From a candidate division WOR-3 bacterium (lineage in GTDB: Bacteria; Hydrothermota; Hydrothermia; LBFQ01): DNA of 42,019 bases. The position numbers were made by a program, and so were the translations under genes. Under the pieces are notes generated by a model, which saw nothing but the letters and a program-made list of their open reading frames with translations, did not search any database and had not been told where the DNA came from. Below, piece after piece: positions 4,259 to 29,585 of the stretch (the stretch's first letter is position 1; the number at the start of each line of letters is the position of its first letter). The DNA is taken from NCBI GenBank assembly GCA_039802605.1, contig JBDRWW010000012.1, positions 1-42,019 of the forward strand, read 5' to 3'.

Positions 4259-4266
4259 ATCTGGCG

Positions 4267-6225
4267 ATGATGGGAATAGCGATAATTCTGGCGCAGGCAA
4301 AGGATATAGTTGGGAGAACCGCCCCTTTTAACGGGTGGTCCCCCGAAAGGGAAAAGGTTGCAATGGAATGGTCTTCAAGGGATGCGGGTGCAATATTAGA
4401 CTCCCTACTTTCCGTTTGGGAATCCCTTAAATCTTCTGGATATTACGACCCGGTTCTTGATAGGAAAATAAGCCTTATGCGTGATAGGTTCTTGGTCAAG
4501 GGTAATATATGGGACTTAATACTAATTGCATCTTTCTTGGAGGATGTCCAAAGGCTGATGAAAGTTAAGGTTTCCCCTTCACCCAATGCGGTCGTAAAAA
4601 TATCCCCCCCTCTAAAAACCGTTATTGAAAACTACTCTTTAAACGATGGGAATAAATGGACATCTTCCCCATTATCAAACTCGGCGGTTATGGAAAGAAA
4701 ACCTACGATTGTACAGGTGGGCGAGGCGGATACCCTATTCGCCGCATTGGAGGTTGAGAATTGCAGCGCGGTTTGCTCCGTATCGCATTCCAATTCCTGT
4801 ATCCTTGTAAAATATTCATACGATCAGGGGACCTCTTGGAACCCGGCATTTTGCATAGAAAGTCCTATGGGAAATGTCAAAAGCCCGAGTATAACATCCG
4901 ACAATTTTAGAAGGGTTATAGGGGTTGTGTATTCCTTTGAAAAATCCCCTACGAATAGCGATATAGGCCTTTATATGTTCCACGCGGGCGATTTTACAAA
5001 AAATCAATCCGTATGGGTGGATACGACATCCACAAACACCATATCCCCCTCCGCGAAATTTACCACAAATCTCGGTGAGCCTTCATGTGAAGGGCAATGG
5101 ATAGGGGATTGCCCTTGCACATCCAACGATAACAAACTGTTTATTGCGGTTAGCAAAGTAAATTCATCGGGTGATGCAATCGGAATAAGGGTTTATAGGG
5201 GTGATGTGTGCGCATCCAATATAAATGTCTTTTATGAAGGTCCAAGTAGGAAAGGTTCGGCTTATACGGGAGATAATCAACCCTTTGTTGCGGTTGGGAA
5301 TTATCCGTTAACATCATCATCCGTTTGCCCTATATCCGGAGGTGGAGAAAACACCGTACATATCGTATATGCTTGGCAAAATTCCTCAACGGAACACAGG
5401 ATTGAACATCTATATACAGACCCATCAAACGGTTGGGGAAGTGTATGGATAAGTACTACGGTATTCTCGGGGTTGTTTTACCCCATAAGCCAGCCTACCA
5501 TAGCGGTTGCGAGGACCACGGATACATCAAACATGCCGCATTTAATAACATTTGAGATTAGGTATTCCCCTTCGGATGCGGATATATACTTTGTTTATAG
5601 GGGTTCTTTATCGGGTTCTTGGTCGGTTGGCAACATAGAGAAGAGTTCCCTTGACAGTAGAACTCCCATTGTTATAAGCGACGCGGAAAACTTAGCCTGT
5701 CCCAATATAAAAACATATGTCGCGGAGAATTTCCATATAGTCTTTTATCATAAATGCGATGTCGTTAATTGGTTATGCTCTGCATCTTCATATAATTCAA
5801 CTCTTAGACCGGTTGCAATAAGGAATCCTTGGAATTTCCCGGGTATTTGGCAGCAGGAATACTGCAATGGTAATGCGGATTACACGATTATACCACCTCC
5901 TCCGGCCTTTGAAAACGGGGGTTATTGGCAGGATTGGAGGAATATATATCCCGCGGTTTATAGGAGGTCGTCTTCATCCACCACACCTTGGTGGCTTGGC
6001 GTCCTGTGGGTTTATAACGACTCGGCCACATCCCTTGACGCATACTGGACGGTTTCGGATTGCGCCCTAGGTGCCGATGATGAACTATCAACATATGAAA
6101 TCTCTGAAAAGGGTTTGGATAAACCCGTTTACTACTCCGTTGATGGTAGGAGGGTTTCAAATAAGAAGAGGGGTATATTGTTTATTAAGGAGGGCAACAG
6201 GGTTAGCAAGGTTTTAAGGAGGTAA
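4267..6225 (+). CDS. Cys-rich secreted protein with an Asp-box and a short T9SS-like C-terminal tail
   Basis: Asp-box SYDQGTSW, 14 Cys, Ser/Thr-rich beta-type body, tail YYSVDGRRV...KRGILFIK...KVLRR. Confidence 0.7.
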   Translation: MMGIAIILAQAKDIVGRTAPFNGWSPEREKVAMEWSSRDAGAILDSLLSVWESLKSSGYYDPVLDRKISLMRDRFLVKGNIWDLILIASFLEDVQRLMKVKVSPSPNAVVKISPPLKTVIENYSLNDGNKWTSSPLSNSAVMERKPTIVQVGEADTLFAALEVENCSAVCSVSHSNSCILVKYSYDQGTSWNPAFCIESPMGNVKSPSITSDNFRRVIGVVYSFEKSPTNSDIGLYMFHAGDFTKNQSVWVDTTSTNTISPSAKFTTNLGEPSCEGQWIGDCPCTSNDNKLFIAVSKVNSSGDAIGIRVYRGDVCASNINVFYEGPSRKGSAYTGDNQPFVAVGNYPLTSSSVCPISGGGENTVHIVYAWQNSSTEHRIEHLYTDPSNGWGSVWISTTVFSGLFYPISQPTIAVARTTDTSNMPHLITFEIRYSPSDADIYFVYRGSLSGSWSVGNIEKSSLDSRTPIVISDAENLACPNIKTYVAENFHIVFYHKCDVVNWLCSASSYNSTLRPVAIRNPWNFPGIWQQEYCNGNADYTIIPPPPAFENGGYWQDWRNIYPAVYRRSSSSTTPWWLGVLWVYNDSATSLDAYWTVSDCALGADDELSTYEISEKGLDKPVYYSVDGRRVSNKKRGILFIKEGNRVSKVLRR

Positions 6226-6307
6226 AAAAAGGTATGTCTTGCCCGATACAATTGCAAACATGGGCGCTCCATCATAACAAGTTTATCGGAAGTAGAATAT
6301 CCCGCCT

Positions 6308-8533
6308 ATGCATTTCCTGGTATCAATTATAAGCGCCAATGTTATAACACTCGGGGAGTTAATACCGAAGAATACACCTTGGGTTTTAACGATTAACATA
6401 TCCCTTAATTCCTCATCCTCCCCCGTGAATTATGTAAAACTCGTTTTCCCATCCGGGTATAATTTTAGTACGGTTGCACCTGATGGTTCCTTTTTGGGTT
6501 CAAGTATCACCGTATCCCCTCCAAACATTGAAATTTCGGGATTTACCATGAATCCAGGGGGTGAGGGTGGGATTTCAATACGGGATTTCTCAACCAACAA
6601 CCAAGAGAAACTGGATTCCTTTCTTCTAATACTGGCAAATTCAACCGATACGACGAGATTACGGGTAAAATTTATGGTTATAAGGGAGGATACAACCGTT
6701 CCCCTCCTGTTTTTCCACAAATCCTTAGCGGAAAGGCCCTTCCTTTTGGGTAAAAGTGTAAATGTAAGGGGCATTGTTAGCGCGGTAATAGGTTCAAAAA
6801 CATATATCCAGGATACCATAAGGGATACCCTGAGCGGAATCGTTATTTATGGGGGTATTGGGGCTTATCCCGGAGAATACATAAAGGTTTCGGGAACATT
6901 CTCCCCTTATAGAGGTCTTGAAGAGATAGTAAACCCGGTTTTAAAGAGTAGGGAGTATGTCGGTGTGCCTTCCCCTTATGTAATTGATAGGCTAACATAC
7001 GCGAGGGAGCTGCGGTCGGGTGTTTTGATAAGGATTGACAGCGTAAGGATACCGGATACATTAACATACATTCCTATATCGACAAATATCACAATAACCG
7101 ATAAATACGGGAATAGCGGAAACCTTTACATAGACAGATATACATACATTGACGGCTTTTTCCCGCCGGATACAATATTTGACCTAATAGGGGTTGTTGA
7201 TGAGGATAGTTCATCTTCCGGAAACATTTACAGGATTATACCGAGAACCACATCGGATTTAATCTTTTACTCGTCCGTTTATGTTGATAGGTTAATCCCA
7301 TTATTTGGTAAAAGGAACACGCCACAGGATTGGAAGCTCTTGCTTTATTCAATTAACACTACTGCAAAATTAAGGGTTTGTTCGGATGGTTTAAGCGCCT
7401 CGGAAGTTGCCGGTATGAAGCTCGGAAATGAAACACCGGATAGCGTATTCTCCCTTGCGGATACGGTTTGTGCCCAGTTTTGGGGTATAAGTTTAACATT
7501 TGATACCTTAAAGTTTTCAACGGAACCCAAGAATACGGATTCCGTTATGCTTTATATATTCTCAGCCCCGGATACCCTCAGGAATTTCAAGAGGTCAATA
7601 TACACCCCGAGGTTATACTTTACGATACCTATAAGCGAGATACAGGCGAGAAATCCAGGCGAGTATTCTTCAAGGTTGGAAGGGCAAACGGTTTTAACGG
7701 CTGGTGTTGTTATGGCCGAGCCTTCAAAATTCTCAACATCAAACACATCAACATATATATACGACGGCACGGGTGGGGTTAATATTTATTCATCGTCGTT
7801 TTTGGGCTTGAAGAGGGGTAACGTTGTCCTCGTTAAGGGAACGGTTACCGAGTATAGGGGGTTAACGGAAGTCGTTTTCTCGGATTTAAGAATTATAGGC
7901 GAGGATACCCTACCCCAGCCCTTAAAACTTTTACCCGGGCAACCTTTGAACGAAGATTTGGAAGGTTTCCTCGTAAGGGTTGATACCGTTGTGGTTTCAT
8001 CTTTACCATCCTACGCGGGGATAGGTAAGTCCTTTACCGTTCAAAACGGTTCTGCACCCATAACCGTTTATGTTTATCCGAATACCGGGATAGACCTTTC
8101 AAGGATTGAACCCGGAAAATTTATCTCAATAGTAGGGATAGTGGGGCAATATTCAACAACACCCCCCTATAACACGGGATACCAACTAATTCCGAGGGAT
8201 ACCCCCGATATAATATTTCTCGGTGAAAACCTGTATTCTCAAAACCTCGGCGTTGTTATAAAGAAAAATGTTTTTATACCATCGAAAGGTGAGGTCGCGC
8301 TTATAGAGGTTAATGGTCCGCAGGGAATTTACGAGGTAAAAATATACGACGATATGGGTAGGTTGGTTAAAACCTTGGCGGAGGGGAATTATTCCGGAGG
8401 TTTTTTCACATGGGATGGCAAGAACATTTCCGGTAGGGTCATGCCTCCGGGGGTTTATGTCCTATATGTTGGCGTTAGGACGGGTGAAAGGACTTTAAAA
8501 AAGGTTAAACCGATAGTTATAGGCGTGAAATGA
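6308..8533 (+). CDS. Secreted protein with repeated OB-fold modules and a C-terminal FlgD-Ig-like domain
   Basis: Two repeats of V.GxV...YIxD...G..IY...G..V.V.G...YRGLxE followed by G.L.R.D...GxV...Y.(I/L)IPR...D; tail IYDDMGRLVKTL...WDGKN.SGR.MPPGVY. Confidence 0.7.
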   Translation: MHFLVSIISANVITLGELIPKNTPWVLTINISLNSSSSPVNYVKLVFPSGYNFSTVAPDGSFLGSSITVSPPNIEISGFTMNPGGEGGISIRDFSTNNQEKLDSFLLILANSTDTTRLRVKFMVIREDTTVPLLFFHKSLAERPFLLGKSVNVRGIVSAVIGSKTYIQDTIRDTLSGIVIYGGIGAYPGEYIKVSGTFSPYRGLEEIVNPVLKSREYVGVPSPYVIDRLTYARELRSGVLIRIDSVRIPDTLTYIPISTNITITDKYGNSGNLYIDRYTYIDGFFPPDTIFDLIGVVDEDSSSSGNIYRIIPRTTSDLIFYSSVYVDRLIPLFGKRNTPQDWKLLLYSINTTAKLRVCSDGLSASEVAGMKLGNETPDSVFSLADTVCAQFWGISLTFDTLKFSTEPKNTDSVMLYIFSAPDTLRNFKRSIYTPRLYFTIPISEIQARNPGEYSSRLEGQTVLTAGVVMAEPSKFSTSNTSTYIYDGTGGVNIYSSSFLGLKRGNVVLVKGTVTEYRGLTEVVFSDLRIIGEDTLPQPLKLLPGQPLNEDLEGFLVRVDTVVVSSLPSYAGIGKSFTVQNGSAPITVYVYPNTGIDLSRIEPGKFISIVGIVGQYSTTPPYNTGYQLIPRDTPDIIFLGENLYSQNLGVVIKKNVFIPSKGEVALIEVNGPQGIYEVKIYDDMGRLVKTLAEGNYSGGFFTWDGKNISGRVMPPGVYVLYVGVRTGERTLKKVKPIVIGVK

Positions 8534-9771
8534 AGGTTGGGATATTTTCCGATACCCATTTGGGCAATACGATGTATAAAAACAACAATATACCAGAGGG
8601 TGATAGGGATTACGGTAGAAAAGACGATTATAGGGATACCTTTGAAGAGGCCGTTGAAACCTTTTTAAGGGAAAAACCGGATTATGTGTTCCACGCCGGC
8701 GATCTGTTAGAGGCGAGGGCCGAAGGGGAGATATATAACGAAAGCATAAAGGTGGCAATTGAAGGTTTAAGCAAACTTTTGAAAGCGGGCATAAATGTGG
8801 TTTTAATAGAGGGAAATCACGACTTTGTAAGATCCCACAGTGTGGAAAACAGGGCGTTTTCAATAATTGAAACCGCATTAAACGACTTTGTGGGGGAAAG
8901 ACTCTTTATAGTTCGTGCAAACTCTTATGGTATTATACAAACACCCCTTGTACCAATAGTGGCGTTCGGATACTTTTATGAGGATAACCCCTCAATTTTA
9001 AAATCCAAGTTGGAGGAATCTTCAAAAAGGATAGGAAACAAACCCGCATTCTTAATACTCCACCAAAGCGTTGGGGAAGATATACCGTATTACTCCATAA
9101 AATACTCCGACATACCCCAAAACTTTCGGGTTATCATAAACGGGCACATACACAAACCACTAATAAAAGTTTTGCCCGATAGGAGGCTTTTTATAAATGT
9201 TGGTTCTACGGAATACGAAAATATTTCCGAATCGGTTGATTATAGGGAGATTTTGTTGTACGATGGGGACGAGTTTTTGAGATTTGTTTTGAAAGGGGTA
9301 TATATTTTAGAAAACGGGTATTTATTTGTTGAGAAAAGCGGAATTACCGACGAAGGCATTATACCGAAGGAATACATAAAAAACGAATCTTTTATACCTT
9401 TAAGGAAATGTCGCCCTTTTATGAGGTTTGATTGCGATGATTGGAAAACCTTGGAGATGGCATTGGAAAAAATAAAGGATTACGGTTTAAAACCGCCGTA
9501 TTTAAGGGTTGAACTCGGTTCGGAAAATAGAAGGGAAGTTGAGGAAAAACTTACGAGGCTTTTGGATAAGGGTTATATTTATAGGTATTTCATAAAAACC
9601 AAGAGTGCTTTAATTGATGATAGGGGTAATATCCAAATCCAAAGGGGGGGAATGGAGTTTGAAGATATGGAACCTTTAAAACCCTACGCAAACCTTATAA
9701 GATCACTTAGGGGTTTGGATGAAGAGGGGTTAAAGGAAAGGTTAAGGGAATACTTTAAACTGGGGAGATAG
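8530..9771 (+). CDS. Mre11/SbcD-family DNA repair nuclease
   Basis: Metallophosphoesterase motifs SDTHLG, AGDL, GNHD, LHQ, GHIH, GSTE. Confidence 0.85.
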   Translation: MKVGIFSDTHLGNTMYKNNNIPEGDRDYGRKDDYRDTFEEAVETFLREKPDYVFHAGDLLEARAEGEIYNESIKVAIEGLSKLLKAGINVVLIEGNHDFVRSHSVENRAFSIIETALNDFVGERLFIVRANSYGIIQTPLVPIVAFGYFYEDNPSILKSKLEESSKRIGNKPAFLILHQSVGEDIPYYSIKYSDIPQNFRVIINGHIHKPLIKVLPDRRLFINVGSTEYENISESVDYREILLYDGDEFLRFVLKGVYILENGYLFVEKSGITDEGIIPKEYIKNESFIPLRKCRPFMRFDCDDWKTLEMALEKIKDYGLKPPYLRVELGSENRREVEEKLTRLLDKGYIYRYFIKTKSALIDDRGNIQIQRGGMEFEDMEPLKPYANLIRSLRGLDEEGLKERLREYFKLGR

Positions 9772-9811
9772 CCCCTTGATAAACATTACAACCTTATAAT
9801 ACCCGTTTAAC

Positions 9812-9884
9812 GGGGCGGTAGCTCAGCTGGGAGAGCGCCTGAATGGCATTCAGGAGGTCGGGGGTTCGAGTCCCCTCCGCTCCA
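9812..9884 (+). tRNA. tRNA-Ala(GGC), CCA not encoded
   Basis: Cloverleaf with GGGGCGG/CCGCTCC acceptor (G3:U70), CCTGA/TCAGG anticodon stem, GGC anticodon and TTCGAGT T-loop; TATAAT at 9795-9800. Confidence 0.97.
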
Positions 9885-9894
9885 CTTTTTTATT

Positions 9895-10383
9895 TTATCT
9901 TACCTTAACACCCCTTTTTAACGAACTCCAAACCCAATCCAAAACTATGTGCATCGTATCCGCGAACAGAATACCCAACAAAAAGGGGATAAAATAGGGG
10001 TTTTTGAATATTGAAAGGGGTTTTAATTGGGGAGGTGATAAGCCTAGATTGTAAAGCGTTCCTGTTATTGAAAACCAAAAGAAAAGGAAAATGGCAAATA
10101 TATATCCAAACCTCGTTAAAATCCCTAAAATCGGAACATGCGATATTCCCCTATGTGGAACAATTAAGGAATAAGGCCTCCATATAAAGGATAAAATTCC
10201 CCACCTTTTAACGGGTTTTGAGTGGCTTAAATCCAAATCCGGGGAAAACCAAAGGGTCGCAACCAAACTCCCCAAACAAAAGGCAACAACCTCATCCAAA
10301 CCCATACCCCTTGAATACGCAAAATAACCCAATATTGCCGTTGAAACTATATTAACCCTATCGTGGGTTTTTCCGGATGGCAT
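9895..10383 (-). CDS. DUF2227-family putative metal-binding membrane protein
   Basis: MPSGKTHD start, SPDLD, HRGISH and DTMHIVLD motifs. Confidence 0.8.
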   Translation of the reverse strand: MPSGKTHDRVNIVSTAILGYFAYSRGMGLDEVVAFCLGSLVATLWFSPDLDLSHSKPVKRWGILSFIWRPYSLIVPHRGISHVPILGILTRFGYIFAIFLFFWFSITGTLYNLGLSPPQLKPLSIFKNPYFIPFLLGILFADTMHIVLDWVWSSLKRGVKVR

Positions 10384-11158
10384 TTAAATGCTCCCTCAAA
10401 GTTGCCGATTTATACTTTGCCGCGCGGGATTTGTGGGGTTTTATCTCCGCGGTTATAAAATCCTCTTCAAAAATTTTCCCCTCTGCCTCAACACTCCCAT
10501 CACCGTTAATAACCCTTGAGCCTCCAAAAAATATTATACCATCCTCAACCCCAACCCTGTTTGCATAAATGGTTGGAATTCCAAAGAACAAAGGGGGTAT
10601 GGATGCTATTCTATGCCAAACATTTACCGAATTGTCGGATATAACAACCCTTAAAGGGTTGTTTGCGATGAGGAGGATATAATCGGCATCGGCATAAGAA
10701 AGATACGAATCCAAGTGCCAAGCATCCTCGCATATAAGAATTCCAAACTTTCCTAACCTGCTATGGATAAGATTAAACGAACTCCCCGCCGTAAAAAACC
10801 TCCCCTCGTCAAACATCCCATATGTTGGCAAATATACCTTTTTATGAATCCCCCTTATCTCACCATCTTCAACGAATACCGCGGAATTATAAAATTGCCC
10901 GTTTTCCTCTATTATTGCGCCAAAAACAACGGCCATACCCTTTGAAGAGTCCAAAATCTTTTTGATTTCATAGGAATGTAAATCAAGGGCAACTATTGGC
11001 GTCATCCAACCCGTAAGGTAGCCTGTCAAACTCAATTCCGGAAATACGATTATATCCAGCCCCTTTTCCCTTGCGTTGTTTATGTATTTCAAATGCAAAT
11101 CCAGGTTATTTTCAACATTTAAAAGTTTAGGGCGTATTTGGGCTATACATACTTTCAA
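10358..11158 (-). CDS. Carbon-nitrogen hydrolase (nitrilase family), resembling the glutaminase domain of NAD synthetase
   Basis: Glu-Lys-Cys triad in FPELSLTGY, HKKVYLPTYGMFDE and ICEDAWH. Confidence 0.85.
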   Translation of the reverse strand: MKVCIAQIRPKLLNVENNLDLHLKYINNAREKGLDIIVFPELSLTGYLTGWMTPIVALDLHSYEIKKILDSSKGMAVVFGAIIEENGQFYNSAVFVEDGEIRGIHKKVYLPTYGMFDEGRFFTAGSSFNLIHSRLGKFGILICEDAWHLDSYLSYADADYILLIANNPLRVVISDNSVNVWHRIASIPPLFFGIPTIYANRVGVEDGIIFFGGSRVINGDGSVEAEGKIFEEDFITAEIKPHKSRAAKYKSATLREHLNAIRKNPR

Positions 11159-11225
11159 GCGGGTATTTTATGGGAGTCATATCTCCACCATACAAAACTT
11201 TCACCCTTAAAATATCCGCCTCAGT

Positions 11226-11474
11226 ATGGTAAAGATAAGGCTCCAGAGGGTTGGAAAGAAAAACGACCCAAGGTATAGGATAATTGTTGCGGATAGTAGA
11301 ACAAAGCGTGATGGAAAGGTTATAGAGATTTTGGGGCACCTCAACCCAAAGGACGATAACGATTGGAGTTTAAACTATGATAGGTATAAGTATTGGATAA
11401 GTGTGGGTGCCCAACCTACGGAACGCGTTTTATCCATTGTTAGAAGGTTTGAAAAACAACAGGCGACAAACTAA
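11226..11474 (+). CDS. rpsP: 30S ribosomal protein S16
   Basis: MVKIRLQRVGKK...YRIIVADSR..RDG...GAQPTERV. Confidence 0.98.
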   Translation: MVKIRLQRVGKKNDPRYRIIVADSRTKRDGKVIEILGHLNPKDDNDWSLNYDRYKYWISVGAQPTERVLSIVRRFEKQQATN

Positions 11475-11487
11475 AAGGAGGTGAAAT

Positions 11488-11724
11488 ATGGAACTGAAGG
11501 AACTGTTAGAATACATAATAAAGGCGCTTGTGGATAATCAGGGAGAGGTTTCAATAACCGAGGTAAAGGGTGAAAGGGCGGTAATATACGAGGTAAAGGT
11601 CGCGGACGAGGATAAGGCAAAGATCATAGGCAAGCAGGGTAGAACCGCAAACGCCATACGCCGTATAATAGAGGCAATAGGTAGGAAGCAGGGTAGGGTT
11701 GTAAGGGTAGAGATTCTGGCTTGA
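11488..11724 (+). CDS. khpA: KH-domain RNA-binding protein KhpA
   Basis: IIGKQGRTANAIR (GxxG loop); typical position after rpsP; GGAGG Shine-Dalgarno upstream. Confidence 0.93.
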   Translation: MELKELLEYIIKALVDNQGEVSITEVKGERAVIYEVKVADEDKAKIIGKQGRTANAIRRIIEAIGRKQGRVVRVEILA

Positions 11725-12209
11725 GGGTTAAGGTGGGGTTGATAACCAAACCTTTTGGGAGGTGGGGGGAGGTAAGGGTTAAAACCTCCTACCCACCCTC
11801 TTTTTTTGTTAACAAGCGGGTTTATGTTCTTAATTCGGAATATAGGGTTTTGAATGCGAGAAAATATAAAGGGGAGTTGATAGTTTTAAAACTATCCGGC
11901 GTTGAGGATATAAACCAAGCGGAGTTGTTGAGGGGTTTGTATTTGGAAGTTGATGAGAGTGATTTGGAACCTTTGAAAGAAGGGGAGTTTTATGTTTATC
12001 AGATTATAGGTTGCAGGGTTTATGATGAAAACTATGGATACCTCGGTGTGGTTAAGGATATGCACGAATGGGCACCCTATTGGACATTGGAAGTGTTGGG
12101 GGATAGAGAAATACTCATACCCTTCGTATCCGAATTCGTTTCCGATGTAGATATCGAAAAAAAGGAAATAAAAACCAGACTGCCAAAGGGTTATGTGGAA
12201 AATTTATGA
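11721..12209 (+). CDS. rimM: 16S rRNA processing protein RimM
   Basis: VG.I.KPFG..GEV, GEFYVYQIIG and EILIPFV motifs; synteny with rpsP-khpA. Confidence 0.93.
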   Translation: MRVKVGLITKPFGRWGEVRVKTSYPPSFFVNKRVYVLNSEYRVLNARKYKGELIVLKLSGVEDINQAELLRGLYLEVDESDLEPLKEGEFYVYQIIGCRVYDENYGYLGVVKDMHEWAPYWTLEVLGDREILIPFVSEFVSDVDIEKKEIKTRLPKGYVENL

Positions 12210-13536
12210 AATAGTAGAGGGTTATAAAAACAAAAGGTTTTCGGCAAAAGAGGTTTTTGAAGAGATTGGAAAGAGGATAAAAGAAAACGAACATCTCAAC
12301 GCGTTTATCACCCTCAACGAGTCGGATATACCCGAAAACGCACTGCCCATAGCGGTCAAGGATAACATTATAACAAAGGGCATAAGGACAACCGCAGGTT
12401 CAAGGATTTTGGAAAACTATATACCACCCTACAATTCAACTGTTGTTAAAAGGCTGCTTGATAAAGGCTTCTACATAGTGGGTAAAACAAACCTTGACGA
12501 ATTTGCCATGGGTTCAACGGGTGAAAATTCCGCATTTGGACCAACGCTAAATCCCTATAATAATGAATTGGTTCCTGGAGGGTCCTCGTCCGGTTCGGGT
12601 GCCGCTGTTGGCGCAAAAATGGTTCCCGTCGCCCTAGGAAGCGATACGGGTGGTTCAATAAGGTTGCCCGCGGCATATTGTAATATTTGGGGTTTTAAAC
12701 CCTCTTATGGCAGGGTTTCAAGATTCGGCCTAATAGCCTTCGCCTCGTCCCTTGATGTAATAGGGCCTATGGCATTATCCCCAAGGGATATAACCCTTGT
12801 AATGGAAATCATCTCGGGATACGACCCATTTGATTCTACGAGTTTAAAGATTGATGGTGTTAAAAGGGAAAGGGTTGATGAATTAAAGCGTAAAGGAAAA
12901 TGGGAAATAGGTGTTTTGGAAAACCTTTTGGATGTACTTGATGGGAAAATATCCGAGAAATTTGAGGTCTTTTTAAGGGAAATTCAAAAGTTCGGAGTTG
13001 AAATAAAAGGAATAAGTTTAAACTTTTCCGAATTCGCCCTGGCATCATATTACATAATAGCATCTTCCGAGGCTTCCTCAAACCTCGCTAGGTACGACGG
13101 CGTTAGGTACGGCGCCAGGATTATGGGCAATGACCTATGGGATACCTATGAGAGGACCAGGGAACTTTTTGGAAATGAGGTTAAGAGGAGAATAGGTATA
13201 GGGACATTCGCCCTTTCTTATGGCTATTACGATAAGTATTATTTAAAGGCATTGCAGGCCAGGAGGCTTATAAGGGATGAGTTAAATAAAGCCCTTGAAG
13301 GCGTTGATTTTTTGGTAATACCAACCTCCCCTTCCCTACCGCCAAAAATAGGTGCGGGATTTTCACCTTTGGACTACTATAAACTTGATAGTTTAACCGT
13401 TCCTTTTAGTTTGGCGGGCTTACCCGTTATGAATGTTCCCTTGGGTGATTTCGTTGGCGTTCAGGTTGCCGGGAGGTTTGCAGGGGATGAAGGGGTTTTG
13501 GCATTTTCCGAAGTTTTGGAGGAAATAATTGGATAA
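12193..13536 (+). CDS. gatA: Asp/Glu-tRNA amidotransferase subunit A
   Basis: AVKDNI, GKTNLDEFAMGS, GGSSSGS, GSDTGGSIR, EASSNLARYDGVRYG and EVKRRI..GTFALS.GYYD.YY.KA. Confidence 0.93.
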   Translation: MWKIYEIVEGYKNKRFSAKEVFEEIGKRIKENEHLNAFITLNESDIPENALPIAVKDNIITKGIRTTAGSRILENYIPPYNSTVVKRLLDKGFYIVGKTNLDEFAMGSTGENSAFGPTLNPYNNELVPGGSSSGSGAAVGAKMVPVALGSDTGGSIRLPAAYCNIWGFKPSYGRVSRFGLIAFASSLDVIGPMALSPRDITLVMEIISGYDPFDSTSLKIDGVKRERVDELKRKGKWEIGVLENLLDVLDGKISEKFEVFLREIQKFGVEIKGISLNFSEFALASYYIIASSEASSNLARYDGVRYGARIMGNDLWDTYERTRELFGNEVKRRIGIGTFALSYGYYDKYYLKALQARRLIRDELNKALEGVDFLVIPTSPSLPPKIGAGFSPLDYYKLDSLTVPFSLAGLPVMNVPLGDFVGVQVAGRFAGDEGVLAFSEVLEEIIG

Positions 13537-14575: not shown

Positions 14576-14577
14576 CC

Positions 14578-16563: not shown

Positions 16564-16570
16564 ACGGGGA

Positions 16571-19036: not shown

Positions 19037-19876
19037 TTGGGGATTTTCTTAGCGTTTGTCGTGGCCCTTTTGGAATCCTTCAAGGATGTCCTTTCAAAAG
19101 AATTACTGAAAACCTTAAACCCCTTTGTTTTCGTTGTATGCGTGAAAGTTTTATCCTTCATCCTGCTCTTACCTACGATTTTAATACCTTTCACAATAAG
19201 CGATACGACAACTTTCGCCCTGGTATATTCGCTTAATGTGTTTTTAAACCTTATAAGCCTTTTGTTCTACTTTACCGCGATAAAATACTCCCCCCTATCC
19301 CTTTCCTTGCCAATGCTAACATTTTCACCGGTATTCCTTTTGATAACCTCTTATATTATGCTGGGTGAGAGGGTTTCCTTTACGGGTATGCTTGGGGTAG
19401 TTATGGTTTTTGTGGGTTCATATCTTTTAAACATTTCAAAAACAAGGGCCGGATTTTTTGAACCGATTAAAGGCATCTTTAAGGAAAGGGGTAGTAGATA
19501 TATGCTGGTTGTTGCCTTGATTTGGAGTATAACGGCAAACCTTGATAAAATTGGCGTAAAACTCTCCTCTCCCCTTATATGGCCGCTTTTTATGAGCGGT
19601 GGTATAGGTTTTTTGGGTTTGGCCCTGTTGAAAATCAGGGGTGAAAGTGTTGAGATAAATCCAAAAATGCTTTTGGTATCCCTTGCCGATTCCCTGGGTG
19701 GAATTTCCCAGATGGTTGCGGTATCCTTAACATTTGTGCCTTATGTAATAAGCATAAAAAGATTGAGCGTTCTCTTTTCTTCGTTGTGGGGAATTATCGT
19801 TTTTAAAGAGAGGGCCAACTTTTTGGGGATTATATTGATGGTCTTAGGGGCAGCAATGATAACGCTCTTTGGATAA
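19037..19876 (+). CDS. EamA/DMT-family transporter
   Basis: About 10 hydrophobic segments in two repeats; LGE and FKE motifs. Confidence 0.88.
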   Translation: MGIFLAFVVALLESFKDVLSKELLKTLNPFVFVVCVKVLSFILLLPTILIPFTISDTTTFALVYSLNVFLNLISLLFYFTAIKYSPLSLSLPMLTFSPVFLLITSYIMLGERVSFTGMLGVVMVFVGSYLLNISKTRAGFFEPIKGIFKERGSRYMLVVALIWSITANLDKIGVKLSSPLIWPLFMSGGIGFLGLALLKIRGESVEINPKMLLVSLADSLGGISQMVAVSLTFVPYVISIKRLSVLFSSLWGIIVFKERANFLGIILMVLGAAMITLFG

Positions 19877-19902
19877 TTTGAGCAGCCTGATAATACAAAA
19901 CT

Positions 19903-20886
19903 ATGCTTTTCTTGATCTCCTATAAACTTTTGGATGCCTTTTCGGGGCTTAAATTTAACAATCCGGTTTTTATGATAAACGACCCGGTGGATAGTAGTGC
20001 TTTTTATGTTGTTGAACAAATTGGCGTGATATTAAAGGTTAAGGGAAATAAGGTTGATACCTTTTTGAATATAAGGCATAGGGTTAAATACGGCGGTGAA
20101 ATGGGTTTATTGGGAATGGAATTACATCCGGAATTTCCCAAAAACGGGAAGTATTACATATCCTATACGGATAACGCCATGTATTCAATTGTGGAGGAGA
20201 GGAAAATCAATCAAAGGGATTATTCAAGGGTTTTATTAAGGGTCAGGCAACCTTTTACAAACCATAACGGGGGGCATATAGGGTTTGGACCTGACGGTTA
20301 TCTTTATCTTGGCCTTGGTGATGGAGGGGCGGCCGGAGATCCGCTAAACAACGCGCAAAATCCAAAAAGCCTTTTGGGAAAAATCATTAGGATAGATGTT
20401 AAAACCGGTAATGTTGAAATATACGCTATGGGTTTAAGGAATCCTTGGAGGTTTTCCTTTGATGGCAATACATTGTGGGTTGGAGATGTGGGGCAGAACG
20501 GATGGGAGGAAATAGATACGATTATAAAGGGTGGAAATTACGGATGGAGGTGTTATGAGGGAAATCACCCCTACAATTTAAAGGGTTGTAAAGAAAGGGA
20601 AAACTATATTTTCCCCGTTTGGGAGTACAAACGGAGCAATGGGAATTGTGCCGTTATAGGCGGATACGTTTATAGGGGTAAGAGGTTAAAGGATTTGTAT
20701 GGGGTTTATGTGTTTGGGGATTACTGTTCCGGGAGGATATGGGGTTTGAAAAGGGAATATAAGGGTTTTAAGGCTCAACTATTGGTTGATACGGAAGAAA
20801 ACATATCATCCTTTGCGGTTGATAATTACGGGGAAATATATGTCATAGGGCATACAAGCGGAAAAATTTATAAGTTGGTTGAGTGA
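19903..20886 (+). CDS. PQQ-dependent glucose/sorbosone dehydrogenase-family protein
   Basis: GEMGLLG, NHNGG.IGFGPDGYLY...GDGG, GLRNPWR, DVGQN.WEE and GGNYGW. Confidence 0.92.
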   Translation: MLFLISYKLLDAFSGLKFNNPVFMINDPVDSSAFYVVEQIGVILKVKGNKVDTFLNIRHRVKYGGEMGLLGMELHPEFPKNGKYYISYTDNAMYSIVEERKINQRDYSRVLLRVRQPFTNHNGGHIGFGPDGYLYLGLGDGGAAGDPLNNAQNPKSLLGKIIRIDVKTGNVEIYAMGLRNPWRFSFDGNTLWVGDVGQNGWEEIDTIIKGGNYGWRCYEGNHPYNLKGCKERENYIFPVWEYKRSNGNCAVIGGYVYRGKRLKDLYGVYVFGDYCSGRIWGLKREYKGFKAQLLVDTEENISSFAVDNYGEIYVIGHTSGKIYKLVE

Positions 20887-20898
20887 ATGGAAATGCCT

Positions 20899-22515
20899 TC
20901 ACCTAACCATAACCTTATTCACCTTACCTTTATAAACCACAAAATAAACCCCCTTTTTGTCCATCTTTACAACCCTCCTTCCCAAAACATCGTATATTCT
21001 TACATTCCCCCTTTCTTCTGCGGCCAATGCTTCCCTTACACCAACGACATCCGTTAATATGACATTCCCAAACCTAATTATATCCGAAATGCTTCCCGAG
21101 TTTTGCGGCCACCAACAAACATATTCGCCAAGGTTATCCGAAAATACCCCCACAAACAGCCCTATCGTGTCGTTTATAGAAGTTTTTATTTTTGCCGGGT
21201 CTTTTAGGGTATCAAAGGGTATTGCAACCTCAAATTGAAAGGAATAGTAATAAGAACTTTGAAGCGAAAGGGAAAAATATGCATTCATATCCGGCCTTGA
21301 AGTTAAAACTTGCGTATCGGATGGGGTAATGTAATAGGACATCCAACCCGTGGGAATTGGAAATATTATATTCACCCCTTCGGAGGAATCCGTCGCCCAT
21401 GTTTTGTTGTTGTTATCGTCAATTGATATAACTACCCTATCAAGGGATGTTATGTCGTTATCGTTTGCGTTTAGTATCCCAATATAAAGGTTATTACCGT
21501 CATGCTTGAAGAGAACCTTACAAGAGCCTATAACCTGTTCCATTCCCCCACCCAACCCGATGTAATCCGAACCCTCAACCTCAACCGCCCCAGCCCAACC
21601 CAAATCGCTCAAAGAGGAATTCCTTATAAACCCATCCAATGTAGGACCTATGGTGTCGTATGGAACATAAATCCAGATGTTTGGGGGCATATAAACCTTT
21701 ACTGCATCTATAAGGGTATCGTTATTGCGGTATTGATCAAGGGTATCGGAGATTATCAGGGCAACATAAAAGCTTCCTATGGTTGATGGCGTCCAGTTTT
21801 TAATGAGAAATGTATCCGCATTTGGGTTTAAGAATATTTTGGTGGAATCCAAGGAAGGGTGGATTCCGTAATAAACCTTTACGGTATCCCCGTTAATGCC
21901 GAGATTTGAAAGGTGAAACCTCAAAGTGTATGAAGAATCCCTTAGGGCGTAATCCGGCGATATTATGCTATCCGCCGAAAAGTCGTAGTTGAAATCCGTA
22001 TAATACACAACCTTAAAGTTATCAACACCAAAGTGGTAATCCCAAAACCTCGTGCCATACCAGAATGATACCCTTAAACTATCGGCACCCGTTGTTAAGG
22101 AAGTTATATCAATGAAACCGGAATATATGCTATCCCTTGAAAGGGTTAAAACTTCCGCCCAAGGTGACCAAAAACCGTTAAAAACGCTTACCAAAACCTT
22201 ACCGGTATCCGGATCACCGGGGAATTTTTTAAAAACCGCATCCAAATACAACTTTAAGGAATCGTATGCGTATCCTATGAAAATTGGGGGTGAAATCAGG
22301 GAGTCGTCAAAAATCGCATCGTATCCTATATCGGAATCGCATATGGCGTACTTTCCCGAAAAGTTGGGGTTTTCAAAGGGTTTAAAACCTTTATTCACAC
22401 CATTCCAGGTCGCGGTATCCCCACCGTTATAAATTCTCCAACCGTATGGGGGAAAAGGTCCGTTAAAATTCTGCGAAAAGATTACAACGGGCGTTGTTGC
22501 TAATAAAACTACCAC
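20899..22515 (-). CDS. Secreted multidomain protein (adhesin/MAM-like, CARDB-like and DOMON/CBM9-like regions) with a short T9SS-like tail
   Basis: FSQNF...FPP.GW...DDSLISP, NNDTL, PTLDG...W and FEVAIPF; tail IYDVLGRRV...KKGVYFV...KVMVR. Confidence 0.65.
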   Translation of the reverse strand: MVVLLATTPVVIFSQNFNGPFPPYGWRIYNGGDTATWNGVNKGFKPFENPNFSGKYAICDSDIGYDAIFDDSLISPPIFIGYAYDSLKLYLDAVFKKFPGDPDTGKVLVSVFNGFWSPWAEVLTLSRDSIYSGFIDITSLTTGADSLRVSFWYGTRFWDYHFGVDNFKVVYYTDFNYDFSADSIISPDYALRDSSYTLRFHLSNLGINGDTVKVYYGIHPSLDSTKIFLNPNADTFLIKNWTPSTIGSFYVALIISDTLDQYRNNDTLIDAVKVYMPPNIWIYVPYDTIGPTLDGFIRNSSLSDLGWAGAVEVEGSDYIGLGGGMEQVIGSCKVLFKHDGNNLYIGILNANDNDITSLDRVVISIDDNNNKTWATDSSEGVNIIFPIPTGWMSYYITPSDTQVLTSRPDMNAYFSLSLQSSYYYSFQFEVAIPFDTLKDPAKIKTSINDTIGLFVGVFSDNLGEYVCWWPQNSGSISDIIRFGNVILTDVVGVREALAAEERGNVRIYDVLGRRVVKMDKKGVYFVVYKGKVNKVMVR

Positions 22516-23882
22516 CTATAAATCAAACCGATATTCACTATGTGGGCGTTAAATGTATATTTTCCGGGCATATAAGGCGATTTGTAGGAATAATTATCCT
22601 TTGCCTTTATTTCCCTATCCGGAGCCATTGTGTATGTGTATGCCAAGTTGAGAGTCCAGTAATCCCCAAGGGCCAGACCGAACCCCCCGGAGAAACCCAA
22701 CCTTTTGCCCAAGTCGGGTATTAAGGGGTTAAATGTGGAATCGGGTATTGGGGATTGGTCATAGGCGAATCCCAACCTAAAAGTGAATCTATCGCCCAAG
22801 GATACCTCGGTACCAATCCCAAATTCATAGGTATTTTTCCAATGGAATTCCAAGGTATCGGAGCTAATCTGGTTGTACAAAAGGATCATGTCATCAAAGT
22901 TTAAGACAACTTTGTCCAATACTTTCCAGAAAACGTAGTTAAAACCAAAGTTTAGGGCAAAGGCCCTTGTGGGTCTAAATGAAAAACCTATTCCCATATC
23001 CGGAGGGAGAGGTAATGAGGTTTTACCAATGCCCTCCCCTTTAAATACATATCCGCTTACGAGCATAGCCGCATCCGGGGCGTTTTCCGCTATGTAATCG
23101 TTCCTCGGGGAGAAGAGTTGAAGGGTTGCCTTCCCATCAATTTGCATGGGTGTATAAAACCTTCCGGTTATGGCAAATCTAAACATTTCACCGATTAAAG
23201 CGGTTATTCCGGCGCTGCCGCCAAAGGCATACCCCGTTCCCCAAATCCTCGTATCAATCGGCCAAAGCCTGTATTCTATTGGCAAATCCGCCGCAGCCGG
23301 ATCTATCTCCGCCGGGTCCTGTAAGGTTACTTTCCTCATATATATCTTCCCTATTACAGGACCCCCCGCCAGACCCCACCTAAACATTCCGAATTCCCTT
23401 CCTAAACCGAACCAAAAGGCAAACGTCTTAACATCGGATTCCCAATCCCTTTCGGGATATTTCGGCTTTTGCCATGTTGTGTCGTATGAGTTGTAATAGT
23501 TTATCGGAGGGTCGTAAAGGTCCCAAGATGTTCCCATTCCAAAAGGAACGAATACACCAAATGCCCAAGTAAATGCATCGCTATACCTCGTGAAACCTAT
23601 GGAAGGTATGGTAGTCAAACCCCTTTGATTGTATGCCTTGTTATCCTTTAACCTCGGATATACGCCGTCATATCCCATAATGTTCGTGGTCATCTGATAT
23701 GTGGATAACCCGTAAAAGTTAAACAGGTCTATTGAGAAGGAATTGCGCTGATCCGAAAGTAGCGAAGGGTTCCAAAACACGGCCGACCAGTCATTCACAA
23801 GGGTGTAATTAACACCCCCTATGCCAAAAGAGGCCGTTCCGAACGCCAAACGAAAGCCGGAAGCAATTATCAGGTTTATCAT
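22509..23882 (-). CDS. FadL/OmpP1-family outer-membrane transporter
   Basis: SGF start, AVFWNPS, VPFGMG..W, LPLP and RLGFAYDQSP...P.IPD; C-terminal YRW; GGAGG Shine-Dalgarno 8 nt upstream. Confidence 0.88.
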   Translation of the reverse strand: MINLIIASGFRLAFGTASFGIGGVNYTLVNDWSAVFWNPSLLSDQRNSFSIDLFNFYGLSTYQMTTNIMGYDGVYPRLKDNKAYNQRGLTTIPSIGFTRYSDAFTWAFGVFVPFGMGTSWDLYDPPINYYNSYDTTWQKPKYPERDWESDVKTFAFWFGLGREFGMFRWGLAGGPVIGKIYMRKVTLQDPAEIDPAAADLPIEYRLWPIDTRIWGTGYAFGGSAGITALIGEMFRFAITGRFYTPMQIDGKATLQLFSPRNDYIAENAPDAAMLVSGYVFKGEGIGKTSLPLPPDMGIGFSFRPTRAFALNFGFNYVFWKVLDKVVLNFDDMILLYNQISSDTLEFHWKNTYEFGIGTEVSLGDRFTFRLGFAYDQSPIPDSTFNPLIPDLGKRLGFSGGFGLALGDYWTLNLAYTYTMAPDREIKAKDNYSYKSPYMPGKYTFNAHIVNIGLIYRW

Positions 23883-24682
23883 TTTCCAAACCTCCTTCCA
23901 AAAAAGTATAAAACATTACCTACAAAAATGAAGAAGAGTATAGCCCAATGTCCAAAGGTTTGTGAAAGCATACCTATGGTTGCCAATCCCCTCATATTTA
24001 CCAACCTCTCGTAATCCGCCGCCCCCCTCAATCCACCTATGAGTCCTTTTATCTGACCCGCCTGCCAATATGTATAGAAACTCGGGGCTATAACCGCGGT
24101 TGAACCTATGATTATTGGTATCCCAAACCTCGCACCCGTTATCTGTACCCAATTATCACCGGAGGCCCCGGCTGCGAAATCAACTACAAGGTCAAAATCC
24201 TTAACGGTTTTAACATCCTGTAAGAAGTCTATGCTATCCAGAGGTGTCCCCTTAACATCGGAATTATAAACGGATTTAAAATCAACCCCTATGTTGGTTA
24301 AAACGGCGGCTACACCCGGCCTAAACCCCAACATAACCCAATCCTTACCGTATTCTCTACCCATTTGTTTGGATATGGTATTCATGGCATCGTTTCCCAT
24401 AAGGATTCCCTGAAAGCTCCAAAGGGTCATAACCGCTATTTTACAATCCTTTCTGAAAAGTTGTTTTGCCATGGCCATAACCATTGGGTGTGTTTCGGGC
24501 ATTGCTGAAGGGCCGTAATCAATTGAGAACAAAACCCTACAATTATTCGGCAGGTTTTCGACATACTCGTATGCCTGTCTAACCTCGGGGGATGGCTCGG
24601 GCATTTTAAAACCCATTCCGGGAATTATAAATGGAAGGGATAGGGCAACGAATAACACGACATATATAACCTGCCTATCCAT
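23879..24682 (-). CDS. Hypothetical membrane protein (TM helix at each end, soluble alpha/beta middle)
   Basis: 267-aa ORF with hydrophobic termini and its own TATAAT box; ATGA overlap with the FadL-like gene. Confidence 0.75.
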   Translation of the reverse strand: MDRQVIYVVLFVALSLPFIIPGMGFKMPEPSPEVRQAYEYVENLPNNCRVLFSIDYGPSAMPETHPMVMAMAKQLFRKDCKIAVMTLWSFQGILMGNDAMNTISKQMGREYGKDWVMLGFRPGVAAVLTNIGVDFKSVYNSDVKGTPLDSIDFLQDVKTVKDFDLVVDFAAGASGDNWVQITGARFGIPIIIGSTAVIAPSFYTYWQAGQIKGLIGGLRGAADYERLVNMRGLATIGMLSQTFGHWAILFFIFVGNVLYFFGRRFGK

Positions 24683-24732
24683 TTGGCGGGTATTATATGG
24701 TGGAAAGCGTTCAACCGTATAATACCTATATC

Positions 24733-25659
24733 ATGATGTGGATAATTGGTTTATACGCGGCGCCTATGTACGGTATGTGGAGGGGTGCTATAGCCACCCC
24801 TAAGGTAAAGGTCTCGTATACACCCTTCACCTTGGACTGGCTAGGTATAGTGACGGGTAATTACTGGGATTACACCATAACCGGAGAACTATGGGGAAGC
24901 GGCACGGAGAGGGATAGCGTATTCCTCGTGGGAACTACCCCCGATACTCTCGGTACATGCGTATTCGTCGGCGGCCTTCCGGGGGCAAACTATCAAGTGG
25001 ATAGAACCACGGATTCCACAAGCGGTACCGGCGTTGATACCGGATTCATATATTTCCGTCAGGGATACGACAACCTTTACGGCGATGGCGGAGCGATGGT
25101 TATGAAGTATATGCCCTCCCTCGGTAACAGTTGGGAGGCCTGGGATACATGCCTCATATCCCTTAATACCAAGCTTCCCATAGGGGATATTGATGGCGAT
25201 ATGGTTGTGGATAGCTTATGGGTGCGCTCATCGAATACCCGGGTTTCTGGGGTGTCTGCGGATACATTTACGACGGTTATATCACCGCTTAAATATGTGG
25301 TATGGATATCTTCTCTATATACCGGTTATGGTGTTGATTCTATTGTTATATGGGATTACTACCGTTATAAGTTTGTTGCAAACTTTGGTAAGATTGAGGA
25401 ACACCTTGACAGTGAGAGGATTAGGTATTACATAGGGGCTTTCCTTGTTCTTGATACCACTTTCCGCAACCTATACCACAAGTTTATAAATACAACATCT
25501 ACCAAAGAATATACGCAACCCGTTATAACAAATTCCACATATGTATATACCGCTTCGGGTAGGTTTGCCGGAAAGGCTATACCCAACAGGAAAGGCGTTT
25601 ATTTCGTGGTAATGTCCACGGATAAAGGGAAACTCATAAGAAAGGTGGTTGTAAAGTAA
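24733..25659 (+). CDS. Secreted protein with a short T9SS-like C-terminal tail
   Basis: Start reassigned to ATG 24733, 9 nt after TATAAT (24718-24723); tail VYTASGR...RKGVYFV...RKVVVK; followed by a terminator. Confidence 0.72.
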   Translation: MMWIIGLYAAPMYGMWRGAIATPKVKVSYTPFTLDWLGIVTGNYWDYTITGELWGSGTERDSVFLVGTTPDTLGTCVFVGGLPGANYQVDRTTDSTSGTGVDTGFIYFRQGYDNLYGDGGAMVMKYMPSLGNSWEAWDTCLISLNTKLPIGDIDGDMVVDSLWVRSSNTRVSGVSADTFTTVISPLKYVVWISSLYTGYGVDSIVIWDYYRYKFVANFGKIEEHLDSERIRYYIGAFLVLDTTFRNLYHKFINTTSTKEYTQPVITNSTYVYTASGRFAGKAIPNRKGVYFVVMSTDKGKLIRKVVVK

Positions 25660-28539: not shown

Positions 28540-28565
28540 ATTATCAAGGGTATAATATCGGGTTT

Positions 28566-29585
28566 ATGGTAATATTTTTAATAGCCCAATCGCAAGGGAT
28601 AGAACTGGAAGAAGAGGTTAAAGCCAAGAGGACAAAGTTTTACACCTTAGACGGGCAAATCGGTTTATGGGCTTCGGATAAACAGTATTACAGGGGAGAA
28701 TTGGGAATACAGATGCAGTACGACTTGGGTATTTACGGGCGCTTATCCTTTATATCCTTTGATAGGTTTTACGGTTTTGCGCTACCCTCTTTAAAGGAGG
28801 CCTTTGTGGAACTCTCCTTTGATAATTCGCTGGATATAAAGGGGGGTTTGGGAGCATTGTTTTGGGGAAACGGCCTTTTACTCGGCGATTACTTAGGGGG
28901 TAATCCCTTTGTTGAGGTTTCATACGGTAAAAGCGTTTGGTTTGGTTTTCTAATTGCCAATACACCATATACGGCCTTTGGAGGTTTGAGGGTGGCCTTT
29001 GACATAAAACAATTTGGATTTGAATTCTACGGAATAGCGGATACGGGCAAAACCCCATACGGTGGTTTGGTTTTTGAAATGGATTATCCCTTTTGGTATT
29101 TAAGCCTTGAAGGCGTAGCGAGTAGGGACACCGCCTTTGGTATATATTTAACGAATACATTCAACTTTGGAAGGTTTAGGTTTGGTATAAACGGGTTTTC
29201 CACAACGAAAAACTACCAAAGGATAGTCGGGCAGGGTTTGGTTTTTGATAGGGATTGGAGCCCCTTTATGGGATTTTCCACACACTTAACATATACATCC
29301 CCTTCAATACCTTGGACATATATATCGGGTAGATCCGGGGAGTTTATAAGGCTATCCTTCCTATACCCCATAAACGAGGATTGGACATTTAAGCCCTCTT
29401 TTGATCTGGGTATGTATCAAACCATACCTCTAAGCATTGAAAAGCACAACTACCCATTTGCCGATGCCCATATAAGGTTTGATTGGACGGAAAACATGTA
29501 TATGGGCTTATCCGCAGGTGCCCTTATAGATTCCACGGTTTATTGGAGAGTGGCGGGGTATGTATCAAGCACTTTCGGTTTTTGA
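28566..29585 (+). CDS. Putative outer-membrane beta-barrel protein
   Basis: Alternating aromatic/Gly amphipathic strands, LKEAFVE...KGG...WGNGLL porin-like segment and C-terminal Phe. Confidence 0.6.
   Translation: MVIFLIAQSQGIELEEEVKAKRTKFYTLDGQIGLWASDKQYYRGELGIQMQYDLGIYGRLSFISFDRFYGFALPSLKEAFVELSFDNSLDIKGGLGALFWGNGLLLGDYLGGNPFVEVSYGKSVWFGFLIANTPYTAFGGLRVAFDIKQFGFEFYGIADTGKTPYGGLVFEMDYPFWYLSLEGVASRDTAFGIYLTNTFNFGRFRFGINGFSTTKNYQRIVGQGLVFDRDWSPFMGFSTHLTYTSPSIPWTYISGRSGEFIRLSFLYPINEDWTFKPSFDLGMYQTIPLSIEKHNYPFADAHIRFDWTENMYMGLSAGALIDSTVYWRVAGYVSSTFGF

Follow-up and report, generated by a model that had tools for sequence, protein, structure and literature searches.

Stubs of six to nine residues as probable minimal export signals in Candidatus Caldipriscus, a WOR-3 bacterium in which no signal recognition particle was found

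Introduction

Signal peptides are taught as a charged head joined to a membrane-spanning core, and the signal recognition particle (SRP) as universal. A contig of a Candidatus Caldipriscus genome (JBDRWW010000012.1; 42,019 nucleotides, hereafter the window) raises the question of how envelope proteins are exported when they begin with only a very short apolar stretch free of Lys and Arg, here called a stub. An original prediction, made from the letters of the window, had singled out eight genes for such proteins and proposed that the lineage uses a miniaturised Sec signal. The window is an entire contig, and the genome to which it belongs comprises 1.65 Mb in 23 contigs, with 41% G+C and 90% completeness. 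The analysis described below suggests that the stubs are true N-termini and that they are found on most non-lipoprotein cargo; it is moderately probable that they act as minimal Sec-type signal peptides.

In passages of a hot-spring study, Caldipriscus is assigned to the Pyropristinus/WOR-3 lineage and described as abundant at 82-84 °C (PMC11696919). The published papers on WOR-3 and Caldipriscus that were searched make no mention of 'signal peptide', 'SignalP' or 'leaderless', SRP terms are likewise absent from one of them, and no report of SRP absence in WOR-3 was found in the literature covered. Searches for short signal peptides with leaderless mRNAs, or for 'unusually short signal', gave no match.

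Stub-bearing genes of the window

All eight open reading frames, together with their N-terminal apolar stretches, were located on reading the window where the original prediction had placed them. They are as follows, with the upstream elements that could be positioned.

4267-4293, plus strand: stub MMGIAIILA, then Gln; 652-aa protein with a type IX secretion system (T9SS) tail, gene 4267-6225, in the C-terminal-domain HMM set
6293-6337, plus strand: TAGAAT box (6293-6298) and stub MHFLVSIISA (6308-6337), then Asn; 741-aa protein, gene 6308-8533, with a FlgD_ig-type tail (Pfam)
16546-16575, minus strand: TATAAT box (16570-16575) and stub MLWVIS (16546-16563), then Gln; TonB-dependent receptor, gene 14578-16563, Pfam Plug
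19889-19920, plus strand: GATAAT box (19889-19894) and stub MLFLIS (19903-19920), then Tyr; glucose/sorbosone dehydrogenase-family (GSDH) protein, gene 19903-20886
22471-22515, minus strand: GTG start; apolar leader of 14 residues, (M)VVLLATTPVVIFS-Q, which has neither Lys nor Arg and exceeds a stub in length; 538-aa T9SS-tail protein
23862-23895, minus strand: GGAGG (23891-23895) and stub MINLIIA (23862-23882), then SGF; FadL/TodX-family barrel, gene 22509-23882, Pfam Toluene_X
24718-24759, plus strand: TATAAT box (24718-24723) and stub MMWIIGLYA (24733-24759), then Ala; T9SS-tail protein
28551-28586, plus strand: TATAAT box (28551-28556) and stub MVIFLIA (28566-28586), then Gln; 339-aa protein

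The names proposed earlier for three of the products agree with Pfam, which returned Plug for the TonB receptor, GSDH for the PQQ dehydrogenase and Toluene_X for FadL; no Pfam family was matched by the 28566 protein. The gene at 22515 had been credited with a stub of six residues, which proved too short, its apolar run extending to about 14. A box with C at -6 precedes five of the eight genes, FadL has GGAGG, the 22515 gene abuts FadL, whose stop codon directly precedes its GTG start, and the gene at 4267 fits least. The box begins at -15 both at 6308, where C stands at -6 and an in-frame TAG lies four codons upstream, and at 24733, where C stands at -6 and -3; two in-frame stops are found four to five codons upstream of 19903. 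For FadL, the claimed GGAGG Shine-Dalgarno sequence and in-frame upstream TAA were both found, the latter at 23916-23918, together with a promoter-like site at 23937-23966, and weak alignments to the solved TodX and CymD put mature residue 9 at query residue 14. The further claim that seven of the starts are the most upstream ones available does not hold for 24733, since there is an ATG further upstream, at 24697, ahead of the box; nonetheless, the TATAAT box fits 24733 as the start.

The start at 4267 is the least certain of the eight (by two codons in either direction). Its upstream TAACAT (4253-4258) lacks C at -6, and an in-frame upstream ATA-AAG-AAG would yield a classical signal, MKKVLTYLAMMGIAIILAQA. 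The orthologues in two other genomes (G002 and G003) retain MMGIA/T.., and that of G003 has a stop eight codons upstream, which leaves no possible extension; the ATA start was therefore rejected.

Upstream boxes and the reality of the starts

Genome-wide counts refer to 1550 crude gene calls (greedy choice of open reading frames of at least 100 aa, with the first ATG, GTG or TTG as start). Among 1545 upstream regions, there are 128 with the onset of TA[N]AAT at position -15 and 158 with it at position -14, compared with about 1-10 at other positions, and GGAGG peaks at -12 and -11 (50 and 55 cases). The extended motif common to 441 genes (~28%) reads AAA, five A/T, C (95%), N2, C (66%), N, T, TAnAAT, A, CCC. 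In these genes C stands at -6 in 95%, there is no canonical -35 element, and the box ends 6-10 nt (mode 8-9) ahead of the start codon. The box alignment provides three examples from the window:

28545-28565, plus strand: promoter-like motif
24712-24732, plus strand: promoter-like motif
16564-16581, minus strand: promoter-like motif

We infer that the box is a -10-only promoter, whose presumed transcription start would give near-leaderless mRNAs, so that nothing upstream of the start codon would be translatable. An in-frame stop lies within four codons upstream in 83 of 175 stub genes and within 14 codons in 146 of them. Extension could add Lys or Arg in 17 of the 175, and a near-cognate start codon is present in only four of these 17. 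Upstream non-canonical starts leading to full-length signals, which the original prediction had named as its weak point, are thus open to four of the 175 genes, and the called starts were upheld. Pfam domains of the envelope stub proteins begin at residues 9-13. Because of the upstream stops, the box or GGAGG at a fixed distance and the architecture shared by orthologues (see below), the genomic sequence supports the view that the stubs are true N-termini.

Two RNA contig runs contain identical pieces of several genes, and contigs cannot reveal RNA ends; the two raw-read RNA runs contained six and zero reads of the Caldipriscus genome. The deepest-covered spot in the RNA-library contigs is a tRNA-Ala(GGC) gene at 9812-9885 (plus strand).

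Signature and cargo of the stubs

A strict stub was defined as Met followed by approximately 5-8 apolar residues without Lys or Arg, charges at positions 2-7 being excluded by the rule itself; 175 of the 1550 genes carry one. Counted with Met, and ended by whichever of a polar residue or Pro comes first, stub lengths have their peak at 7-9. This leaves an apolar core of 5-7 residues, which is no longer than the lower limit of the approximately 7-15 residues of the usual h-region. Trp occupies residue 3 in 37 of the 175 stubs, the corresponding figures being 4 of 239 for classical signals and 18 of 1130 for other proteins. The corresponding codons in the window are:

16557-16555, minus strand: Trp3 codon of the TonB receptor
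24739-24741, plus strand: Trp3 codon of the T9SS-tail protein starting at 24733

After an apolar hexad, [A/S/G]-Gln occurs 25 times at residues 6-10 (12 times at residue 7), over an internal background of 0.25 per position, and none of these 25 stubs has Lys or Arg in residues 2-8; in the residue table of all stubs, Lys and Arg are absent from positions 2-7, as the rule dictates. The same pair is found 15 times at residues 13-30, with Lys or Arg present in 12 of the 15 cases. Stubs and classical signals thus end alike, which suggests that one signal peptidase serves both. Approximately three quarters of the stubs have a residue other than Gln next, and in these it is less clear where the stub ends. 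Stubs have no lipobox and, as they contain no Arg, no twin-arginine motif. It appears from these features, which lend the idea support, that selection acts on the length of stubs, on Trp at residue 3 and on the [A/S/G]-Gln end.

Cargo was surveyed with Pfam in 113 of 167 stub-pattern proteins, five from the window being left out. A family was assigned to 80 of them. Judged by family names, approximately 60 of these belong to the periplasm or outer membrane or are secreted, 7 are integral to the membrane and 13 belong to the cytoplasm. Among the envelope families are BamA, a second Omp85, SurA, two OEP (TolC-like), LolA_like, PD40, SprA, OmpA and Plug/CarboxypepD_reg, together with the peptidases C25, S8, M14 and M23, cytochromes c, PCuAC, SCO1, a DsbA-like protein, redoxins, amidases, SLT and Por_Secre_tail proteins. 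Among the cytoplasmic members, RecA, RRF, L13, Ldh and an acyl-CoA dehydrogenase have domains that start at residues 14-41, so their starts were called too far upstream.

A second cargo set was chosen independently of the N-terminus, with a local HMM of the T9SS-like tail. Its 82 proteins divide into 39 with strict stubs, 13 with classical signals and 30 others, many of which are near-stubs, internal-start cases or contig-end fragments; in the rest of the proteome, stubs are found in 136 of 1468 proteins. The genome also encodes classical signals, for example, MKKVLLVFGFASPLFAQ, MKRLFLVLSIIPAVVFAQ and, on a TonB receptor, MKGGRKMKRLFSLFLILWAAPLFAQ, and many MKR...C lipoproteins. These counts support stubs as the majority signal type for non-lipoprotein cargo, and the situation that the original prediction had considered fatal, namely normal signals on most exported proteins elsewhere in the genome, was not encountered.

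The T9SS-like C-terminal domain, seen in ~82 proteins, typically ends in K-x-[VI]-[VI]-[KR], and SprA itself begins with a stub (MIILLAYTDF). Two further features of the window should be listed:

18649-18972, minus strand: lipoprotein with an ordinary signal, MHRLTLLGFLILAC, located by the lipobox pattern; an internal contrast to the stubs
1137-3326, minus strand: S9-family peptidase starting MLQNLFFIGPFLAG, with a Shine-Dalgarno-like site upstream; a ninth stub-type candidate, absent from the original list

Two lipoproteins had been claimed for the window, in which the lipobox pattern found this one. By eye, a 176-aa membrane protein at 38767-39297 (minus strand) is a candidate lipoprotein signal peptidase, LspA.

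Conservation within the phylum

Orthologues of the TonB receptor from the genus and family show the same architecture at eight of nine loci, i.e., a TA(T/C)AAT box 6-9 nt before an ATG or GTG and then a stub of 6-8 residues. ATG and GTG are exchanged at the same codon, and the stub sequence is variable between orthologues whereas the mature part is conserved; three further loci gave no N-terminal match. All orthologues keep a Cys two to three residues past the stub (..SQVCEF, ..SSICEF, ..AGTCRVE, ..LTSCEV). This residue might form a disulphide or belong to an atypical lipobox; in most orthologues it does not fit the canonical one.

BamA N-termini were compared in 30 genomes of the phylum (families are denoted f, and genomes G). 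They are 8-9 residues long in the Caldipriscus genome of the window and in f5, and 12-13 residues long in f4 (mostly with one Lys) and f12 (without Lys or Arg). The N-terminus is a stub in f26, and classical signals of ~20 residues with Lys or Arg are found in f11, f14, f17, f19, f20, f24 and f25. Within the class of the window, BamA N-termini range from 8 to 13 residues. A 400-kb sample from each of five genomes gave the following counts:

Window genome: SRP absent; stubs 47 of 373; TAnAAT box 30%; 13 Trp3 stubs
G020 (same class): SRP absent; stubs 33 of 343; TAnAAT box 9%; no Trp3 stubs
G076: SRP absent; stubs 30 of 335; TAnAAT box 2%; no Trp3 stubs
G058: SRP present; stubs 16 of 330; TAnAAT box 4%; one Trp3 stub
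G066: SRP present; stubs 16 of 351; TAnAAT box 6%; no Trp3 stubs

Set against the two SRP-positive samples, and with the [A/S/G]-Gln ends set against their internal background, the stub pattern of the window genome greatly exceeds chance. Leaders of 10-13 residues without Lys or Arg occur in the G020 and G076 samples. From the BamA series and the 400-kb samples together, it follows that Lys/Arg-free shortening is widespread in the phylum, with the family of the window as its extreme.

In G020, which belongs to a sister family, many exported-looking proteins begin with Met-Asn and 9-12 apolar residues without Lys or Arg, and the element ahead of their genes is mostly GGAGG rather than the TAnAAT box.

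SRP and the Sec machinery

The original prediction had implied an altered SRP; the SRP was affected, although not in this way, as Ffh, FtsY and SRP RNA were not found at all. PF00448, which covers Ffh and FtsY, scored at best 20.8 bits in the window genome and no more than 28.5 bits in 30 relatives of the class, and matched each of the 14 control genomes; by this search Ffh/FtsY occur in 0 of 35 genomes of the class. The weak matches were considered as a divergent FtsY and rejected, since the proteins are MeaB and AAA_22. Tblastn of the window genome with four FtsY queries from the same phylum gave a best E-value of 0.096, and neither an SRP_SPB domain nor an SRP RNA (RF00169) was found in this genome. 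Across 61 genomes of the phylum, PF00448 scores 207-255 bits in 38, nearly all with a pair matching the FtsY and Ffh frame lengths; five have a single match of 138-158 bits, possibly FlhF, and 18, including the window genome, have no match above 29 bits. RF00169 is present in 37 of the 38 genomes with a strong SRP54 match and in none of the 23 without one. Several of the SRP-less genomes are 99-100% complete in three to four contigs. In a quick BamA tree with a midpoint root, they comprise the class of the window (10 rows), a second clade made up of f20, f24 and f25 (five rows) and one single genome, which implies at least two losses of SRP. By comparison, the abstract of a published study describes SRP as conserved across all organisms (PMC7844537).

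SecA (978 aa), SecY (443 aa), YidC, trigger factor and one LepB were found in the window genome, and SecB was not found there. SecA, SecY, YidC and LepB have an ordinary appearance. LepB carries the Ser, Lys and GDN boxes. SecY aligns over its full length with solved SecY structures, and its conserved stretches, which we take to hold the pore ring, are identical to or conservatively changed from those of E. coli; in this shallow check, no change in the pore or plug was evident. Thus, the predicted change in SecY or signal peptidase I specificity was not borne out, as both proteins carry the usual motifs and classical signals coexist with the stubs. In SecA (contig C3, 24679-27615), the preprotein-binding domain spans residues 333-461 and SecA_DEAD residues 9-505, and there is no Cys-rich C-terminal tail. 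Comparison with the Pfam model suggests approximately 100 extra residues before the preprotein-binding domain.

Interpretation and alternatives

The reading that we favour, with somewhat more confidence than doubt, takes the stubs for genuine minimal signal peptides of the Sec type, composed of Met, 5-7 apolar residues (often with Trp at position 3) and a small residue. They are probably cleaved and would serve most non-lipoprotein cargo in a lineage without SRP and with near-leaderless mRNAs. Many of these genes would be transcribed from the -10-only promoter (C-N2-C-N-T-TAnAAT-ACCC), which ends 6-10 nt before the start codon, leaving the mRNA almost leaderless. The nascent or finished chain would then be delivered to SecYEG via SecA, SRP being absent, possibly with the assistance of the ribosome or YidC. 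The short apolar N-terminus would open the SecY lateral gate, and the single LepB would cut past the small residue, often exposing Gln. Within this scheme, we infer the transcription start, the SecA route and cleavage, and it is the nature of the cargo that points to export of the stub proteins. The miniaturised Sec signal proposed originally is thus retained with respect to true, conserved N-termini on exported cargo; however, classical signals coexist with them, and the machinery has not simply been retuned. In that proposal, the Met1 amino group might stand in for the n-region.

Several observations weigh against minimal Sec signals. Five to seven apolar residues cannot span the membrane as a classical h-region does, and SecY and LepB have no obvious change, so the machinery gives no explanation for the acceptance of stubs, or for the way in which a core of this length would engage SecY and reach LepB. 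Classical signals of 18-22 residues with Lys or Arg coexist with stubs in one genome. The overlap between SRP loss and short signals is imperfect, as f12 and f26 have SRP yet short BamA signals, whereas f20 and f25 have no SRP yet classical BamA signals. The gene calls are crude, and the 13 cytoplasmic proteins among the 80 with a Pfam family derive in part from starts placed too far upstream. A plant-type glutaminyl cyclase (PF05096) was not found, in a search that also left a Bacteroides control unmatched and did not include the M28 type. Finally, a generic -35/-10 sigma-70 scan of positions 4000-23999 gave 36 sites compared with 47.7 expected, i.e., no enrichment, and, of the eight genes, it picked up a site upstream of FadL alone. 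However, such a scan is uninformative here because the box promoters have no canonical -35.

It may be entertained, if only tentatively, that SRP and the charged signal peptide have been replaced in the Caldipriscus class by a code, fMet-apolar-Trp-apolar(4-5)-small, which SecA or another factor would read on near-leaderless mRNAs as the chain exits the ribosome; this would be a new targeting route, not a shortened version. A different possibility is that the stub is a remnant, signals having been truncated as promoters moved to the start codon, and that export proceeds mainly via mature-domain targeting and a permissive translocon, with the stub adding little hydrophobicity. The graded BamA series in the phylum, from classical signals through 12-13 residues to the 8-9 of the window's family, is consistent with such a history, as are the Lys/Arg-free leaders of 10-13 residues in G020 and G076. 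Furthermore, mature-domain targeting signals exist, and E. coli prlA mutants reportedly export signal-less proteins. Nonetheless, the sharp length peak, the position-specific Trp3 and the [A/S/G]-Gln end do not resemble random decay, and SecY is identical or conservatively changed in the stretches presumed to hold the pore ring, which makes a remnant rather unlikely.

The minimal-signal reading presumes cleavage, and one may ask whether the stub could instead be an uncleaved export or membrane-association tag, kept on the mature protein or carried by an N-terminus that crosses head-first. Six to eight residues may indeed be too short for the usual hairpin that presents the cleavage site to LepB, and the stubs that lack a following Gln, approximately three quarters of them, have less clearly defined ends. 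However, the [A/S/G]-Gln junction equals the one that ends the classical signals of this genome, and orthologues differ in the stub but conserve the mature part, as is the case for cleaved signals; an uncleaved tag is accordingly improbable. An artefact of start calling, whereby the real starts would be upstream non-canonical codons, or frameshifted exons or assembly loss would conceal signals of normal length, is far less credible still. It could draw on the ATA upstream of 4267 and on the four of 175 stub genes that permit such an extension, but it is contradicted by the stops within 4 codons upstream in 83 and within 14 in 146 of the 175, by the constant spacing between the called start and the promoter box or GGAGG, by separately assembled orthologues that share the architecture and exchange ATG and GTG at the same codon, and by the G003 orthologue of 4267, which allows no extension.

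Comparison with known systems and significance

If the stubs are minimal Sec signals, tags of 6-9 residues appear to suffice for the whole envelope of a free-living lineage without SRP, and the minimum requirements for Sec targeting become testable. Signal-peptide predictors whose training rests on classical signals would be likely to overlook the greater part of the phylum's secretome. Such an omission would distort inferences on extracellular proteases and nutrient uptake in Caldipriscus-rich hot springs of the kind described in passages of PMC11696919. Minimal thermostable export tags could also serve as tools.

Stubs resemble Sec/SPase I signals in being N-terminal and apolar, in having a small residue before the junction and in serving the same cargo families, and SecA, SecY and LepB are present. 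They differ in length (6-9 residues, with a core of 5-7, compared with approximately 18-30), in the lack of Lys and Arg and in the enrichment of Trp at residue 3. Lipoproteins in this genome have signals (for signal peptidase II) that are likewise short and N-terminal; however, they keep Lys/Arg, a core of approximately 10 residues and the lipobox Cys, none of which is found in stubs.

In Actinobacteria and Deinococcus-Thermus, leaderless mRNAs have a -10 box approximately 10 nt before the start codon. The Caldipriscus box is similar in that a TAnnnT-type element stands at a fixed short distance, here in ~28% of genes. Unlike those systems, for which we take the spacer to be approximately 6-7 nt, the putative Caldipriscus promoter, known so far from DNA sequence, has a spacer of 8-9 nt, C at -6 in 95% of cases and a downstream ACCC.

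The Gln that follows a small residue, after both stubs and classical signals, recalls the Bacteroidetes Q-rule (PMC5837995, PMC10653852), which, as an abstract notes, is not valid throughout the FCB group. However, Caldipriscus does not belong to Bacteroidetes, and only a minority of its stubs precede Gln. With respect to SRP, the closest likeness is to the E. coli SRP-deletion suppressors, which, as the abstract of PMC7844537 indicates, are cells without Ffh and FtsY. The SRP-less WOR-3 bacteria, from hot springs and elsewhere, are free-living, with genomes of 1.4-3.3 Mb and full envelopes; their loss of SRP has become fixed across entire families and one class, through at least two events.

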